Positions 16,178-47,725 of a stretch of 49,715 nt of DNA are shown here, in pieces. The stretch lies in sequence record MZ501085. One strand, 5' to 3'. Source of the stretch: Escherichia phage JohannLBurckhardt. A model generated the notes under the pieces. It searched no databases and was not told the origin of the DNA. It saw nothing but the letters and a program-made list of their open reading frames with translations. Both the position numbers and the translations under genes were made by a program. The first letter of the stretch is position 1. Each line of letters starts with the position of its first letter.

Positions 16178-16222
16178 GCAACCTCAAAACAGCACAAATT
16201 GTTAAAACTGGAGGCCAAAACT

Positions 16223-26767: not shown

Positions 26768-26784
26768 ATGTAAACTCTCCTAAA

Positions 26785-26799
26785 TAGCACGTTTTGTTA
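26785..26799 (-). promoter_or_regulatory. palindrome copy directly upstream of tail fibre RBS
   Basis: + strand TAGCA-cgttt-TGTTA; 18 nt upstream of fibre ATG, so not a canonical motif-promoter. Confidence 0.3.
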
Positions 26800-26833
26800 A
26801 TGACAAGTCGGATTATAGCATTGCGCAAGGCAT

Positions 26834-27828: not shown

Positions 27829-27841
27829 GATTCGCTCCAAT

Positions 27842-27880
27842 AAAAAAATCGCGTAGCCGGATGATACCAGATACGCGATC
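27842..27880 (-). terminator. terminator hairpin overlapping a degenerate motif-promoter
   Basis: On - strand ATCGCGTA...TACGCGAT stem with TATCAT in loop, then 7 T; preceded by CAGCA-caaat-AGCTA. Confidence 0.55.
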
Positions 27881-27886
27881 TTTGAT

Positions 27887-28327
27887 TTAGCTATTTGTGC
27901 TGTTTATGAAGTCCGACTCTTTCACCACGCGAAGCATTTCGTATCGGTCGCATTTCGTCGTTAACGCCTTGCCGTTTGAGTCGAATCGCAAATCTGGACG
28001 GCAGAATGAAGAACGATAGCCCTTGCAGCCGTTTCGCTTATAGTCGGCGTGAACCTTTTCGGCTCCAGAAACGGAAATCATTCCGCGCTTGCGCCACTGC
28101 TGTATAACCTGGTGAGTAACCTTTAAGCGCCTTGTCATTTCTGCCTGAGATCCGTAATATTCGCAAACGGCATCCAGGCGAGCACGCAATCCGGCTTTGA
28201 CTTCATCCTTTAGAACGTAGTAGCCTGTTTTGCGCTTGCGCTTTTTCTTGTCTTTACCGCGCTTTACACCGTTGTTGCCATTGATTGTGCGCTTGTCAAT
28301 TTCGCCAGTTGATGCAGCAATTTTCAT
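27887..28327 (-). CDS. HTH DNA-binding protein (Cro/YdaS-like), putative transcriptional regulator
   Basis: 146 aa from ATG 28327 (RBS GGAGGT); basic N-terminus, GSQAEMTRRLKVTHQVIQQWRKRG HTH-like segment. Confidence 0.5.
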   Translation of the reverse strand: MKIAASTGEIDKRTINGNNGVKRGKDKKKRKRKTGYYVLKDEVKAGLRARLDAVCEYYGSQAEMTRRLKVTHQVIQQWRKRGMISVSGAEKVHADYKRNGCKGYRSSFCRPDLRFDSNGKALTTKCDRYEMLRVVKESDFINSTNS

Positions 28328-28340
28328 ATTAAACCTCCGA

Positions 28341-28383
28341 TAGCACTTTTTGCTAAAAACACTCAAAACGTATGCGCTATTAT
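28341..28383 (+). promoter_or_regulatory. palindrome-type promoter element (site c)
   Basis: TAGCA-ctttt-TGCTA, 22 nt, TATTAT; 33 nt upstream of helicase ATG; divergent from HTH gene. Confidence 0.6.
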
Positions 28384-28415
28384 ACATTCAATCGGTTAAC
28401 GAATAAAGGTTAAAA

Positions 28416-30925: not shown

Positions 30926-31672
30926 ATGGCTAAAGACATTCTTGATAACTCAACAATCGACGGTATCGAGCAGGTTGATGAAATGGACTTTCACGAATTG
31001 CAGCACGGCAAGTATTCAGACATAGCCCTGCGCTCAGGCGGTCATTACCAGGCCGTGAAACCTTGCCAGTATTACAAGGTTACAGGCAACCGTTACGCCG
31101 GAAGCAACACTCCAGATGTTGTCCGTGACCTTTGGGCTACTCCGCGCGATGTTGTCGCGTATATGGAAAGCCGCTACGGTAAATATGATCTTGACGCTGC
31201 GGCTAGCGAGGACAATAAAGTCTGTGAAAAATTCTACAGCAAAGAAACAAACTGCTTAAAGCGTTGGTGGGGTAGCAAGAAGCACGTATGGCTGAATCCT
31301 CCATATTCGAATCCAGATCCGTTTGTGCTAAAGGCCATTGAGCAAATGGAGCACGACAATCAGATCGACATATTGCTTCCAGCCGACAACTCAACGGCAT
31401 GGTTTAGCGACGCACAAAAGCACGCTGCTGAAATTATCTGGATCACTGGCGAGACCTGGAAAGATGAAGATGGGCGCGAGTATTCACGAACCGGACGATT
31501 AGCGTTTATTTCCGGTCTGACAGGTGAACCAGTTAGCGGTAACAACAAGGGCAGCGTAATTTTTGTTATGCGCAAACTGAAAGAGGGTGAGCAGCAACAA
31601 ACGCACTACGTGAAAATTAGCGAAATCTGCCCGTCCGTAAAAAACAAGCGAGCAAAAGCAAGGAGTTTTTAA
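30926..31672 (+). CDS. dam: DNA N6-adenine methyltransferase (Dam-like)
   Basis: 248 aa; catalytic NPPY motif (LNPPYS). Confidence 0.8.
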   Translation: MAKDILDNSTIDGIEQVDEMDFHELQHGKYSDIALRSGGHYQAVKPCQYYKVTGNRYAGSNTPDVVRDLWATPRDVVAYMESRYGKYDLDAAASEDNKVCEKFYSKETNCLKRWWGSKKHVWLNPPYSNPDPFVLKAIEQMEHDNQIDILLPADNSTAWFSDAQKHAAEIIWITGETWKDEDGREYSRTGRLAFISGLTGEPVSGNNKGSVIFVMRKLKEGEQQQTHYVKISEICPSVKNKRAKARSF

Positions 31673-31785
31673 TGAAAGATGATGTTGCAGCACTTGGAAT
31701 TTTGTGCGCCTTTATGATTGGCGGCGGCTTTTGTTCTTATGCGCTCCTGGCGCTCATTATCAAAATCGGAGAGTTGATCCAATGA
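31672..31785 (+). CDS. small hydrophobic peptide (37 aa)
   Basis: ATG overlaps dam TAA (TAATG), AAGGAG 7 nt upstream; MKDDVAALGILCAFMIGGGFCSYALLALIIKIGELIQ; stop overlaps next ATG. Confidence 0.4.
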   Translation: MKDDVAALGILCAFMIGGGFCSYALLALIIKIGELIQ

Positions 31786-32030
31786 CAGAGAGAAATGTTG
31801 CACTTAACGAAACAGGAATGTTTTTGCTGTATCGCGCTATGGTATGCCAGGCGCTTGATCTGAATCCGCACATTAAGGAAGTGATAGGAGTTGACCCGTG
31901 GGAATATTCAAGCGCCCTTGATATGAGCTTTGAAGAAACAGCGCGGCTACCTCTTGAAAAGTGGCATATCAAGATTGCTGATGATCTTGATGAAATGTGG
32001 CAAGACCTTAAAAAACGAACGGCTCACTAA
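31782..32030 (+). CDS. hypothetical protein
   Basis: 82 aa from ATG 31782 (RBS GGAGAG). Confidence 0.5.
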   Translation: MTERNVALNETGMFLLYRAMVCQALDLNPHIKEVIGVDPWEYSSALDMSFEETARLPLEKWHIKIADDLDEMWQDLKKRTAH

Positions 32031-32031
32031 A

Positions 32032-32074
32032 TAGCACGAATTGCTAAAACTGCCCGGCGAAAGTCGGGCATAAT
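32032..32074 (+). promoter_or_regulatory. palindrome-type promoter element (site e)
   Basis: TAGCA-cgaat-TGCTA, 22 nt, CATAAT; hairpin TGCCCG/CGGGCA; leader CCAACGAAAAC. Confidence 0.6.
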
Positions 32075-32106
32075 TATTTCCAACGAAAACCACTTAGGAA
32101 AACGAA

Positions 32107-32298
32107 ATGAAAATCTACAGCAAACGCTCTTTCAAAATCGCGCAGGAATTAGCACGCGAGGCGGTAGCCGGAGGCAGCAAAGAGGGCTACGGTTTCGATT
32201 GGGATATAGCAATGATTTACTTGCAGGTGGCGACAGGTCACGCTCCAATCGAGAAAATCGAGCAGGTTGACAAGGTTATTGAGGAGGGATTGATTTAA
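32107..32298 (+). CDS. hypothetical protein
   Basis: 63 aa; RBS; follows site e. Confidence 0.5.
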   Translation: MKIYSKRSFKIAQELAREAVAGGSKEGYGFDWDIAMIYLQVATGHAPIEKIEQVDKVIEEGLI

Positions 32299-32546
32299 TG
32301 AAGGTTGAGCAAGGCCGCGAGGCCGTTTGGAATCACGCCAAAGAAACCGGAATGGCAGACGATATAGCACGAATTGCTAAAATCTTTGATCTGGCTGATG
32401 TTAGTATTATCAGCAACGGGAAAATGACTTACTTACACGAGAGGCCACGCAAAATGCACCGCGTGCCAGCAATCCCGACAAAAATTGACTTCAAAGAAGC
32501 AATGGCAAAAATCAGAGAGCCGAAAAAGTATTATAAAGGAGAATAG
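32298..32546 (+). CDS. hypothetical protein (contains an internal palindrome copy)
   Basis: 82 aa; ATG overlaps upstream TAA; motif site f lies in-frame inside this ORF. Confidence 0.45.
   Translation: MKVEQGREAVWNHAKETGMADDIARIAKIFDLADVSIISNGKMTYLHERPRKMHRVPAIPTKIDFKEAMAKIREPKKYYKGE
32365..32407 (+). promoter_or_regulatory. intragenic palindrome-type element (site f)
   Basis: TAGCA-cgaat-TGCTA, 22 nt, TAGTAT (TATTAT at 25 nt). Confidence 0.4.
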
Positions 32547-32551
32547 TTATC

Positions 32552-32623
32552 ATGTGGCGCTTGCTTGTTCTTCCAATGCCCGTTATCATTGCCGCCGTTG
32601 TTATGTACGCACTTGTTATGTGA
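32552..32623 (+). CDS. possible 23-aa hydrophobic peptide
   Basis: ATG 10 nt after AAGGAG; MWRLLVLPMPVIIAAVVMYALVM; speculative. Confidence 0.25.
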   Translation: MWRLLVLPMPVIIAAVVMYALVM

Positions 32624-32640
32624 TTTAAGAGGAAAAATTA

Positions 32641-33759
32641 ATGATTCAGAAAATGACAGATCAGCAGTTTAAAGACGCGCGAGCGGAGGGCAAAACCTAC
32701 AAGCAGATCGCGGACGAGTTCGGCTTGAATGTTCGCACCGTTGAGCGCCGCGCGGCACGCCTTGCTCGCCAGGGTGAGACTGACACGAAAGGCGCACCAG
32801 GTTTTGCGGTTGTTCGTGAGTCAGTCCTGACCCGCGCAAACGGCGAAGAAGTGATGCGCTGGACTATCACCAACAAAGATAAAGAGCAGTTGGAGGCGCT
32901 CATGCAAGCCGCGATGGACGCATTCGCTGAGGAAGTGCCGCGCCTGGAGCCTCAGCAGGAAAGCCGAAAGGACTACAGCGAAAGCCTGGCGCTATACCCT
33001 ATTTTTGACATGCACATTGGCGCAATGGCTCACAAGCATGAATGTGGTGAGAATTGGGATACAGCAACAGCCGAGAAAGTCATGAATGACTTCTTTGATT
33101 ATGCGGTTGAGTGTGCGCCAAATAGCGAGAAAGCCGTGCTCCTGATTGGTGGAGACATGCTTCACAGTGACGGCCTTGAGGCTGTAACACCTGCCAGCGG
33201 TCACGTTCTGGATCAGGATAGCCGATACGCCAAACTTGTTTATGTCGCAATCCGAGCAACTCGCCGCGCTATCTCATTGATGTTGACCAAGCACAAAGAG
33301 GTTGAAATTCAGGTGATCGAGGGCAATCATGACCAATCAGGCATGATCTGGCTACGCGCAGCAATGGCGGCGGCATACGAGGACGAGCCGCGCGTGATGG
33401 TTGATGTTTCTCCTCGCGTAGTGCATCACACGCAGTATGGTAAAACATTCCTCGCTTATCATCACGGTCACACCGTGCGCAAGCCGGAAACGTTATTGAT
33501 GATGTGCGCGGCAGATTGGCGCGAGGATTTTGGCAAATCAAAATCAATGTATGCTCATGTAGGCCATTGGCATCACCAGACCGTAACAGAAACCAGCCTG
33601 GGGATTGTTGAAGTTCATAGCACAATGGCGGCCAAAGATGCGTATGCGGCACGCGGCGGCTGGCGCTCTCGTCGTCGCGCTGCGGTTATCATCTACGATA
33701 AAGAGCACGGAGAGATCGGGCGCTTTATGTTCTACCCTGAAATGATGGAGTCAAAATAA
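32641..33759 (+). CDS. calcineurin-like metallophosphoesterase with N-terminal HTH domain
   Basis: 372 aa; DMH...GGDMLHSD...GNHDQ phosphoesterase motifs; N-terminal KTYKQIADEFGLNVRTVERR HTH-like. Confidence 0.65.
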   Translation: MIQKMTDQQFKDARAEGKTYKQIADEFGLNVRTVERRAARLARQGETDTKGAPGFAVVRESVLTRANGEEVMRWTITNKDKEQLEALMQAAMDAFAEEVPRLEPQQESRKDYSESLALYPIFDMHIGAMAHKHECGENWDTATAEKVMNDFFDYAVECAPNSEKAVLLIGGDMLHSDGLEAVTPASGHVLDQDSRYAKLVYVAIRATRRAISLMLTKHKEVEIQVIEGNHDQSGMIWLRAAMAAAYEDEPRVMVDVSPRVVHHTQYGKTFLAYHHGHTVRKPETLLMMCAADWREDFGKSKSMYAHVGHWHHQTVTETSLGIVEVHSTMAAKDAYAARGGWRSRRRAAVIIYDKEHGEIGRFMFYPEMMESK

Positions 33760-33929
33760 TGAAAGTTAAATGCGTTGAGAATTCATCTAAAACACTGCCT
33801 TACTACGAGGGCTTTGTGTACGAGGCCGATCAATTACCTGGCGGGATGTACAAGATTAAAGATGAATCAGGGCAGCATGTTATTGCGCCGCTAAAAGGGT
33901 ATTATCTGGAGTTTTTACAGATTGATTAA
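33759..33929 (+). CDS. small protein (56 aa), MK.IR-family-like N-terminus
   Basis: ATG overlaps upstream TAA (TAATG), GGAG 8 nt upstream; not in ORF track (<60 aa). Confidence 0.45.
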   Translation: MKVKCVENSSKTLPYYEGFVYEADQLPGGMYKIKDESGQHVIAPLKGYYLEFLQID

Positions 33930-33952
33930 CATTTAATTTCATGAGCTTACAA

Positions 33953-33981
33953 AGGGCTGGCGTTTGCTAGCCCTTTTTTTA
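33953..33981 (+). terminator. rho-independent terminator
   Basis: AGGGCT...AGCCCT hairpin followed by 7 T. Confidence 0.8.
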
Positions 33982-40055: not shown

Positions 40056-40334
40056 TCACTTCATCATATGCAGATTGTTAGCGATAAACTTGACAACTTC
40101 ACGCAGTTGCTTTTCGTCAAAGATAGTCGCTGGCAATTCTTCTTTCAAATCCTGGTGCAGATAAACGTTTCCGTGCCAGGCGAGTTTGTCATGCTCGATG
40201 CGATAGCTACACATCCACTCACAATCGTTGTCAGCTTCCCAAATGCACAGAGCGGTGTAGTCGCCCAAATCCTCAACGGTTAACTCAATGCCGCGTTTCT
40301 TTGCCATGTTGAAAGTGGTCTTGCTGATGTTCAT
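40056..40334 (-). CDS. hypothetical protein
   Basis: 92 aa from ATG 40334 (RBS GAGGAAAA). Confidence 0.5.
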   Translation of the reverse strand: MNISKTTFNMAKKRGIELTVEDLGDYTALCIWEADNDCEWMCSYRIEHDKLAWHGNVYLHQDLKEELPATIFDEKQLREVVKFIANNLHMMK

Positions 40335-40365
40335 TTCGTTTTCCTCAGTTCGTTTCGTTGAATGC

Positions 40366-40409
40366 ATTATGACAAATCCTATCCGCTCTTTTTTTAGCAA
40401 AAAGTGCTA
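40366..40409 (-). promoter_or_regulatory. palindrome-type promoter element (site r)
   Basis: On - strand TAGCA-ctttt-TGCTA, 23 nt, CATAAT; leader TTCAACGAAACGAACTGAGGAA. Confidence 0.55.
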
Positions 40410-40424
40410 TTTAATCGGTAGTCA

Positions 40425-40525
40425 GTGATTTTGATGATTGCTTGACCACTTTTGCAATGATGTTTTTGATGTCCGTCAACTTTTGTGTGATTGTGATGAT
40501 TGTTGATGTTTTTTGATGTGATTTG
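40425..40525 (+). repeat. degenerate short tandem repeats (TGATG / TTTTGATG units)
   Basis: gattttgatgattg...caatgatgtttttgatg...gattgtgatgattgttgatgttttttgatgtgatttgaatg in AT-rich noncoding region. Confidence 0.5.
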
Positions 40526-42998: not shown

Positions 42999-43034
42999 AA
43001 CCCCATCGAAACGAAACACGCTGAGGAGCACAAA

Positions 43035-47693: not shown

Positions 47694-47725
47694 TACCCCA
47701 TCGAAACGAAACGGAGACACCAAAA

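Follow-up and report, generated by a model that had tools for sequence, protein, structure and literature searches.

What does a complete regulatory-looking repeat do inside a coding region? The question was raised by the genome sequence of Escherichia phage JohannLBurckhardt (MZ501085), and the window analysed here is this whole stretch of 49,715 nucleotides. A first-pass annotation, made from the letters alone, had noticed a full 'promoter palindrome' together with TAGTAT/TATTAT inside ORF 32298..32546. It proposed either an internal promoter that drives the micro-ORF and the phosphoesterase gene downstream, or an ORF that is really two shorter units. Coordinates and frame were confirmed. 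The sequence TAGCA-cgaat-TGCTA lies at 32365-32379 within ORF 32298-32546. The in-frame translation across it is ...DDIARIAKIFD..., and the two overlapping hexamers follow behind.

The region 31600-33800 of the window is 93.5% identical to Escherichia phage IsaakIselin (Bas10) and 82-92% identical to Henu7, Samwise, BubbaBully and other Henuseptimavirus members. On sequence similarity, the window was assigned to Drexlerviridae, Tempevirinae, Henuseptimavirus. Drexlerviridae of the T1-like type are virulent siphoviruses of ~50 kb. They form a large family with wide use in therapy work, and repeats in their genomes have been on record since 2004. For Citrobacter phage Stevie, where the GenBank record annotates the same word as a 22-bp repeat_region, 16 copies of VWATAGCAYKWWTTGYTAAAAV were reported, and 20 copies for T1 (PMC4319613). 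These repeats are asymmetric, lie mainly between genes and are oriented with transcription; their role was stated as unknown (PMC4319613). The 2024 re-annotation of TLS found 21 copies of aaATAGCACnnnTTGnTAAAA, of which three are entirely intragenic and were set aside by the authors (PMC11447400). Just three classical sigma-70 promoters were detected in TLS. A stoperator, an enhancer site and an UP-element were named as candidate roles of the repeat, and its function was listed among the unanswered questions of T1-like phages (PMC11447400). Typical copies are intergenic, ~76 nt 5' of a start codon (PMC11447400, PMC4319613). Since TLS has three intragenic copies, this placement is typical and not obligatory (PMC11447400). 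Literature searches found no transcription-start data for Drexlerviridae. The term 'promoter palindrome' is half correct: a 5+5 palindrome is contained in the element, but the element itself is the asymmetric, oriented repeat of 19-22 nt that had already been described (PMC11447400, PMC4319613). The copy studied here, site f, is a new intragenic member of this known family, and as such unsurprising to a specialist, intragenic copies having been noticed earlier.

The coding region around it was analysed next to its homologues. ORF 32298..32546 (plus strand) encodes 82 aa and matches phrog_2817 with an E-value of 2.3e-35 over residues 1-81 of 82. Its start ATG overlaps the stop codon of an upstream 63-aa gene (TAATG) with a GAGGAGG Shine-Dalgarno ahead, an arrangement by which the gene is translationally coupled to its neighbour. 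In tblastn searches, the protein matched ~850 phage records, 788 of them with at least 80% protein coverage. The first 60 codons, which include the motif and the -10, are open in 108/108 distinct homologues from phages, IMG/VR and metagenomes. The 89 homologues followed as far as their stop are all full length, with conservation of the kind expected for a protein. By these comparisons, ORF 32298-32546 is one real gene, and the proposed division into two shorter units was rejected in view of the open, full-length phrog_2817 homologues. Comparison with homologous loci, which the first-pass annotation had named as a check, thus revealed a single, conserved ORF and a motif that is retained in many lineages and lost or absent in others. 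A single-sequence AlphaFold model of the protein (pLDDT 55) consists of two helices and a beta-hairpin, with the motif codons in helix 2; at this pLDDT the model is too poor for a fold search. The T1 RefSeq record NC_005833 leaves an intact 90-aa homologue (40239-40511) unannotated, and as a result the in-gene copy of T1, ATAGCATTAATTGCTAAAT, seems intergenic there. In Enterobacter phage N5822 the homologue is annotated with 109 aa, due to a frameshift near codon 76 that joins the micro-ORF region. This record has 78 kb compared with the ~50 kb usual for the family, and an error of sequencing or assembly is probable.

A canonical copy of the repeat, site e, lies 333 bp 5' of site f on the plus strand (32031..32074), with its 19-mer at 32031-32049, a terminator-like hairpin at 32051-32070 and a -10 CATAAT at 32069-32074. 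It is present in all relatives and is probably the regular promoter of this block of genes. Three genes follow the 82-aa gene on the plus strand. The first one past the predicted transcription start is a hydrophobic micro-ORF of 23 aa (MWRLLVLPMPVIIAAVVMYALVM, 32552..32623). It had no PHROG match, is unannotated in IsaakIselin, Henu7 and Samwise, and is kept in most Tempevirinae and, in diverged form, in Webervirus lineages, with site f present or not. An association between site f and the micro-ORF was rejected, as the micro-ORF is found with and without the motif. The second gene (phrog_704, 32641..33759) encodes a 372-aa metallophosphoesterase or 'DNA repair exonuclease', which is presumed to be the main target of an internal promoter at site f. 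Its N-terminus (32641-32790) resembles a sigma-70 region 4-like helix-turn-helix (HTH; Sigma70_r4_2 E 1e-5, just under the Pfam cut-off), and the T1 homologue has the same HTH-like N-terminal sequence. Possibly a nuclease that binds DNA sequence-specifically, the enzyme has its gene shortly after site f and is a candidate reader of the repeat. A 56-aa gene (phrog_4788, 33759..33929) is the last of the unit, which is closed on the same strand by a strong intrinsic terminator with an 11-bp stem and a T run (33951..33976).

In the window, the pattern TAGCA-N5-TGCTA occurs 19 times with at most one mismatch, compared with 1.67 expected. The oriented word is longer and asymmetric, ATAGCAYnnnTTGYTAAAA, that is ATAGCA(C/T)nnnTTG(C/T)TAAAA. 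Twenty copies of this 19-mer were found at up to two mismatches; 13 are exact and site f is among them. The word is near-invariant at its specified positions, with C14 to T, present in a third of copies, as the single common variant. Most copies are oriented as the downstream genes are transcribed. In 8 of the 20 window copies (2102, 30832, 37339, 38016, 44614, 45570, 46671 and 47650) the TAG of the repeat (aTAGcac) serves as stop codon of the upstream gene, and 5 more follow a stop at a distance of up to 3 nt.

Behind the word, a hexamer of the TAnnnT type was found at a rigid distance, 19 nt in 13/15 canonical window copies and 20 nt in the remaining two. The survey covered five phages of five genera, namely the window, Roth87 (Webervirus), SH2 (Tunavirus), ACG-M12 (Guelphvirus) and Stevie (Tlsvirus). 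A [TC]AnnnT hexamer stands at offset 19 in 53/69 of their copies and at 19 or 20 in 57/69, with a background of 1-2 per offset. If the transcription start is taken 7 nt after the hexamer, the word occupies -50 to -32 and the centre of the 5+5 palindrome falls at ~-42. Because of this rigid hexamer geometry at offset 19, we infer that the repeat and the hexamer together probably form a promoter. The distance from TTGCTA to the hexamer is 22 nt, too far for a -35. TTGCTA as a true -35 was also rejected since nothing -10-like lies at 17 nt from it. A sigma-54 promoter (GG-N10-GC; TGGCAC-N5-TTGC) was rejected as well: the repeat has TAGCAC without the GG, and its spacing to TTGC is 2 nt short. Classical sigma-70 promoters occur in the window at the level of shuffled sequence, 6 versus 6.0 in one count and 17 versus 17.8 in a second one. 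That they are no commoner than in shuffles agrees with the finding of only three in TLS (PMC11447400).

In many canonical copies, the spacer or the surroundings of the -10 hold a hairpin or a terminator, and a conserved leader CAtCGAAACGAA comes next. This leader, CAtCGAAACGAA(A/C), lies ~5-25 nt past the -10 in many copies, for example at 42999-43012 and 47694-47707, and also in other genera. Transcripts would therefore begin with a common sequence. A degenerate copy, ACAGCACAAATAGCTAAAT (27840-27895, minus strand), overlaps the stop codon of the HTH regulator gene (27887-28327). Its -10 TATCAT lies within the loop that a terminator hairpin, ATCGCGTA...TACGCGAT followed by T7, makes just before the primase gene. 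Thus terminator and promoter share one element there. Similar hairpins flank the -10 at copies 37339, 42955, 45570, 46671 and 47650. Three copies, 2102, 16189 and 26784, have no -10 at all. The copy at 16189-16207 (plus strand) is an 'A-class' variant, ACAGCACAAATTGTTAAAA, placed ~15 nt 5' of the ATG with which the large tail fibre/tip gene begins. It cannot serve as a promoter with the geometry usual for the repeat. Stevie has a similar copy directly before a tail fibre gene start. Two copies face against their neighbouring genes. One (6366-6348, minus) lies in the structural module ahead of a 320-aa gene; the other (26784-26802, plus) stands between the gene for the 827-aa tail fibre and that for the primase with a terminator after it, and has counterparts at the equivalent position in SH2 and ACG-M12. 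These opposed copies may produce antisense transcripts or have another mode of action.

A further copy (28340-28358) was found in the divergent region 28328-28415, between the gene of an HTH regulator (ATG at 28327, minus) and a helicase gene (28416). It is placed between the perfect -10 of the regulator (TATAAT, minus, ~28384-28379) and the regulator's Shine-Dalgarno. The TATAAT overlaps, face to face, the TATTAT that together with the repeat would serve the helicase gene. In four other genera a repeat stands at the same place beside the HTH regulator gene. This layout suggests autoregulation or a bidirectional promoter.

Site f itself reproduces the T1-family direct repeat perfectly and is of the 'G' class with a GAA centre (32364..32382, plus strand; ATAGCACnnnTTGCTAAAA / ATAGCACGAATTGCTAAAA), with palindrome arms TAGCA at 32365-32369 and TGCTA at 32375-32379. 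Compared with the consensus aaATAGCACnnnTTGnTAAAA, 16/16 specified core positions are matched, and the weakly conserved 5' 'aa' reads 'at'. Its orientation is that of its host ORF and of the downstream genes. The copy is wholly intragenic, with the next gene start (32552) 188 nt away, and so departs from the intergenic placement typical of the family. The 19-mer covers codons I23-A-R-I-A-K28 and the first base of I29. The TAG and TAA of the word close two of its three sense frames, and the remaining frame encodes I-A-(R/L)-(I/F)-(A/V)-K. For this reason the repeat can sit inside a gene in one sense frame only, and site f uses this frame. By sequence, site f is a genuine and complete member of the T1-family repeat, placed over a real gene in the only open frame. 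It shows a regulatory word fitted into a gene of a dense phage genome, where the frame dictates the peptide.

A spacer of canonical length, 19 nt (32383..32401, codons 29-33, variable among relatives), separates the end of the 19-mer from the -10-like hexamer TAGTAT at 32402..32407 (codons V35-S36-I37, GTT AGT ATT), which is thus at the canonical offset. Together with a TG at 32399-32400, the hexamer forms an extended -10, TGtTAGTAT (32399-32407, form TGnTAnnnT), with 4/6 matches of the hexamer to TATAAT. The overlapping TATTAT at 32405-32410 is off register by 3 nt. The frequency of TAnnnT is 1.1% per position and that of TGnTAnnnT ~0.1% (about 1e-3). An exact word with an in-register TGnTAnnnT occurs in only three window copies, site f included, and was not found in shuffles (0). 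There is no -35-like hexamer at 17 nt from the site f hexamer, where a canonical sigma-70 promoter (16-18 nt) would have one. Position 3 of the hexamer is G, a base absent there from every canonical copy. When the -10 and the leader block were scored with a matrix from the canonical copies, site f was in the top 11% of all positions, not above chance. The conserved leader CAtCGAAACGAA is missing and only CAACGGGAAAA is present. A 6-bp inverted repeat (GCTGAT/ATCAGC, 32394..32414) holds the hexamer in its loop and resembles several canonical copies; it is not conserved in the deeper clade. From sigma-70 geometry and the spacing of the repeat, a transcription start is predicted at 32412..32416 on the plus strand (~32414, 7 nt past the hexamer).

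Codon choice and conservation were used to judge the DNA word separately from the peptide. With the codon usage of the phage, the probability that IARIAK is spelled as the repeat is ~1/680. ATA accounts for 9% of Ile codons and AGT for 7% of Ser codons, and codon choice at site f follows the motif, not the usage of the phage. Synonymous diversity was determined in 38 distinct sequences of the clade with at least 80% protein identity. It was 0.059 for codons 23-28, 0.088 for codons 34-37 and 0.303 elsewhere; a comparison with codon sets drawn at random gives a p of ~1e-4. Codons 29-33, in the spacer, belong to the most variable ones. Quiet motif and -10 codons around a variable spacer are the pattern that a two-block promoter would leave. 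Codons 16-22 are likewise low in synonymous diversity, and among 46 contiguous windows of 15 codons the one over the element comes only 10th, so that part of the signal may be regional. Residue 25 also tracks the DNA word. Where the motif is present, the codon begins with C or T (CGA Arg, CTA/TTA Leu); where it is absent, mostly AAA/AAG Lys or AGG Arg is found, with Gly, Met or others in some lineages.

The motif is intact across deep Tempevirinae branches (~22% nucleotide divergence) and occurs at the same codons in phage T1, L086 and L097. The peptide IA(K/R/L)IAK predates the motif. In Stevie, TLS, Webervirus and the L025-L033 group it is spelled by other codons and no motif is present. In the relatives L020 and L046 the word, the TG and the AGT were lost via synonymous changes. 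Tunavirus is polymorphic at the motif codons, with codon 27 in all four synonymous forms, and T1 itself carries the motif. In the L025-L033 group, Tlsvirus, Webervirus and Guelphvirus, neither site f nor a substitute copy before the phosphoesterase gene was found. Judged by this distribution, site f is dispensable. A gene-conversion tract at the motif was rejected, since the differences are spread over the 5' half of the gene (T1 versus L080; L020 versus L007). To our reading, the in-frame embedding of the repeat, its single open frame and its synonymous constraint have not been described before.

The explanation that we prefer, and to which we give about an even chance, is that site f acts as an auxiliary internal promoter for the micro-ORF, the phosphoesterase and the 56-aa genes. 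The repeat would be the upstream half of a composite promoter that has no -35, with the palindrome centre at ~-42, the position of a class II activator. Both halves would be present at site f, ATAGCACGAATTGCTAAAA in codons 23-28 and TGtTAGTAT in codons 34-37. The word would bind whatever reads the other copies, and RNA polymerase would open the DNA at TGtTAGTAT and start near 32414. Beyond the remainder of the 82-aa gene, such a transcript would cover the 23-aa membrane micro-ORF, the HTH-phosphoesterase and the 56-aa gene, and would stop at the terminator (33951-33976). It would be made on top of the transcripts from site e, and expression of the three downstream genes would be raised relative to the 63-aa and 82-aa genes, which would be served by site e only. 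The internal promoter offered by the first-pass annotation thus gains indirect support from the exact geometry, the rare codons and the reduced synonymous diversity. The weak -10, the missing canonical leader and the several lineages that do without the site speak against it.

Site f could also have no role at its position. The peptide would then happen to be compatible with the repeat, and a harmless copy would have arrived by drift, recombination or short-patch conversion, in the latter two cases from one of roughly 20 other copies. That the peptide predates the motif, with motif-free lineages encoding IA(K/R)IAK by other codons, is consistent with this, as are the repeated loss of the site without compensation, the polymorphism in Tunavirus, the weak -10 with its insignificant downstream matrix score and the mosaic nature of the region among relatives. 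A copy that merely drifts along is, however, difficult to reconcile with motif and -10 codons that have 3-5 times less synonymous diversity than the rest of the gene while the spacer between them is variable, or with the retention of the rarest Ile and Ser codons over ~22% nucleotide divergence. The extended -10 sits exactly at the canonical offset, which has a chance of ~1e-3, and where close relatives differ, the changes do not gather at the motif as a conversion tract would. We consider this neutral history unlikely, though plausible. A site that is bound but does not start transcription appears more doubtful still. It could be a roadblock or 'stoperator'-like brake on transcription from site e, a loop partner of site e or a sink for a factor. 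Copies 2102, 16189 and 26784 do lack a -10, site f combines a perfect 19-mer with the weakest -10 of all copies, and the Stevie and TLS authors likened the repeats to the oriented, partly intragenic stoperators of L5 (PMC4319613, PMC11447400). The TG and hexamer codons are nevertheless conserved as well as those of the 19-mer and decayed together with it in L020. Moreover, the phages are virulent and no repressor is known.

The two remaining readings have little probability. An RNA element in the read-through mRNA, that is a 5-bp stem with a 5-nt loop as a signal for processing, stability or antitermination, is very improbable. A small hairpin is predicted (-4.6 kcal/mol, z -2.5), and with C14 to T, the variant of one copy in three, the pair survives as G-U in the sense strand. 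No pair shows a compensatory change on both sides, though, and a hairpin would not require a -10 hexamer fixed at 19 nt. The 81 nt around site f show no unusual degree of structure (z -1.3), and a search of the whole window against Rfam gave no match at gathering score. Hardly any weight is left for a wrongly called ORF, with either a pair of short genes or a shorter protein that the new transcript would yield by internal initiation at M43 (ATG 32424). It could be invoked because the T1 RefSeq record omits the homologous 90-aa ORF and an in-frame ATG lies ~10 nt past the predicted transcription start. The former part is contradicted by the homologues, open over 60 codons in 108/108 and full length in 89/89 cases with typical protein conservation. 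Translation from M43 was rejected, as other lineages have Ile, Leu or Phe at residue 43 and the preceding GGGAAA is neither a good nor a conserved Shine-Dalgarno.

If an auxiliary promoter at site f is the correct reading, a reader of the repeat has to be assumed. The invariance of the word points to a host component, or to RNA polymerase itself, rather than to the variable HTH regulator of the phage (27887-28327). The recognition helix of this regulator differs between subfamilies and the repeat does not; since the word is invariant while the helix varies, and since early genes carry the word too, a host component would be the better candidate. Host Lrp was tried as such a reader and rejected: matches with up to two mismatches numbered 6 compared with 8.9 expected and were all of the T class, so that Lrp is a weak lead only. 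A link between Lrp and T1 was not found in the literature.

A wider hypothesis follows, which we hold tentatively and with somewhat less than even confidence. The repeat would mark a distinct promoter class, without a -35 and with a site at -42, that drives most early and middle transcription of Drexlerviridae; its reader, being highly conserved, would probably be host-encoded, and site f would be a working internal promoter kept by selection on synonymous sites of the gene that overlaps it. This family-wide hypothesis is sharpened here by the finding that, in five genera, a -10 hexamer follows the repeat at a fixed 19 nt. The second addition is an in-frame copy whose codons are apparently under extra constraint. 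If the hypothesis is true, site f is a natural dual-coding site, where the repeat can be removed without altering the protein or the intergenic spacing. Synonymous mutations at site f thus give a direct test of what the 21-nt repeats do.

The closest known relatives of site f are the direct repeats of T1, Stevie and TLS, with which it has the sequence, the orientation rule and the 'G' class with its GAA centre in common (PMC11447400, PMC4319613). In contrast to these repeats, which usually lie ~76 nt upstream of a start codon, it is wholly intragenic. The stoperators of mycobacteriophage L5 are targets of the prophage repressor and have no -10 coupled to them, and Drexlerviridae are virulent. 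They are likewise short, asymmetric and oriented with transcription, and some are intragenic (PMC4319613, PMC11447400). For E. coli Lrp, the binding consensus is yAGhAwATTwTdCTr (PMC5554404). The repeat arms TAGCA/TGCTA with their A/T-rich centre of 5 nt fit YAGHA-N5-TDCTR, although the class of site f matches only 11/15 positions of the consensus. At the RNA level, lambda boxB has the same geometry of a 5-bp stem and a 5-nt loop as the repeat hairpin.

Among promoters with a phage-specific box, the middle promoters of T4 replace the -35 by a MotA box, and T4-type phages also have PeSL early-promoter cassettes. They share with the T1-family repeat a conserved box 5' of a normal -10 that recurs at gene boundaries, in front of many small early genes. 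The centre of the MotA box is at -30, that of the T1-family repeat at -42. This position is known from class II activator-dependent sigma-70 promoters, where CRP or FNR binds at -41.5, and from lambda cI at OR2, which activates PRM. To our knowledge, no activator of the T1-family repeat has been reported. Since early genes carry the repeat, any activator of the class II type would be a host factor or injected. A host factor, the HTH regulator of the phage (27887-28327) and the phosphoesterase HTH are candidates only. The repeat differs from a class II site in that it is asymmetric outside its 5+5 arms. As at class II promoters, site f has a dyad at ~-42 of the predicted start in place of a -35, and a -10 at a fixed distance.
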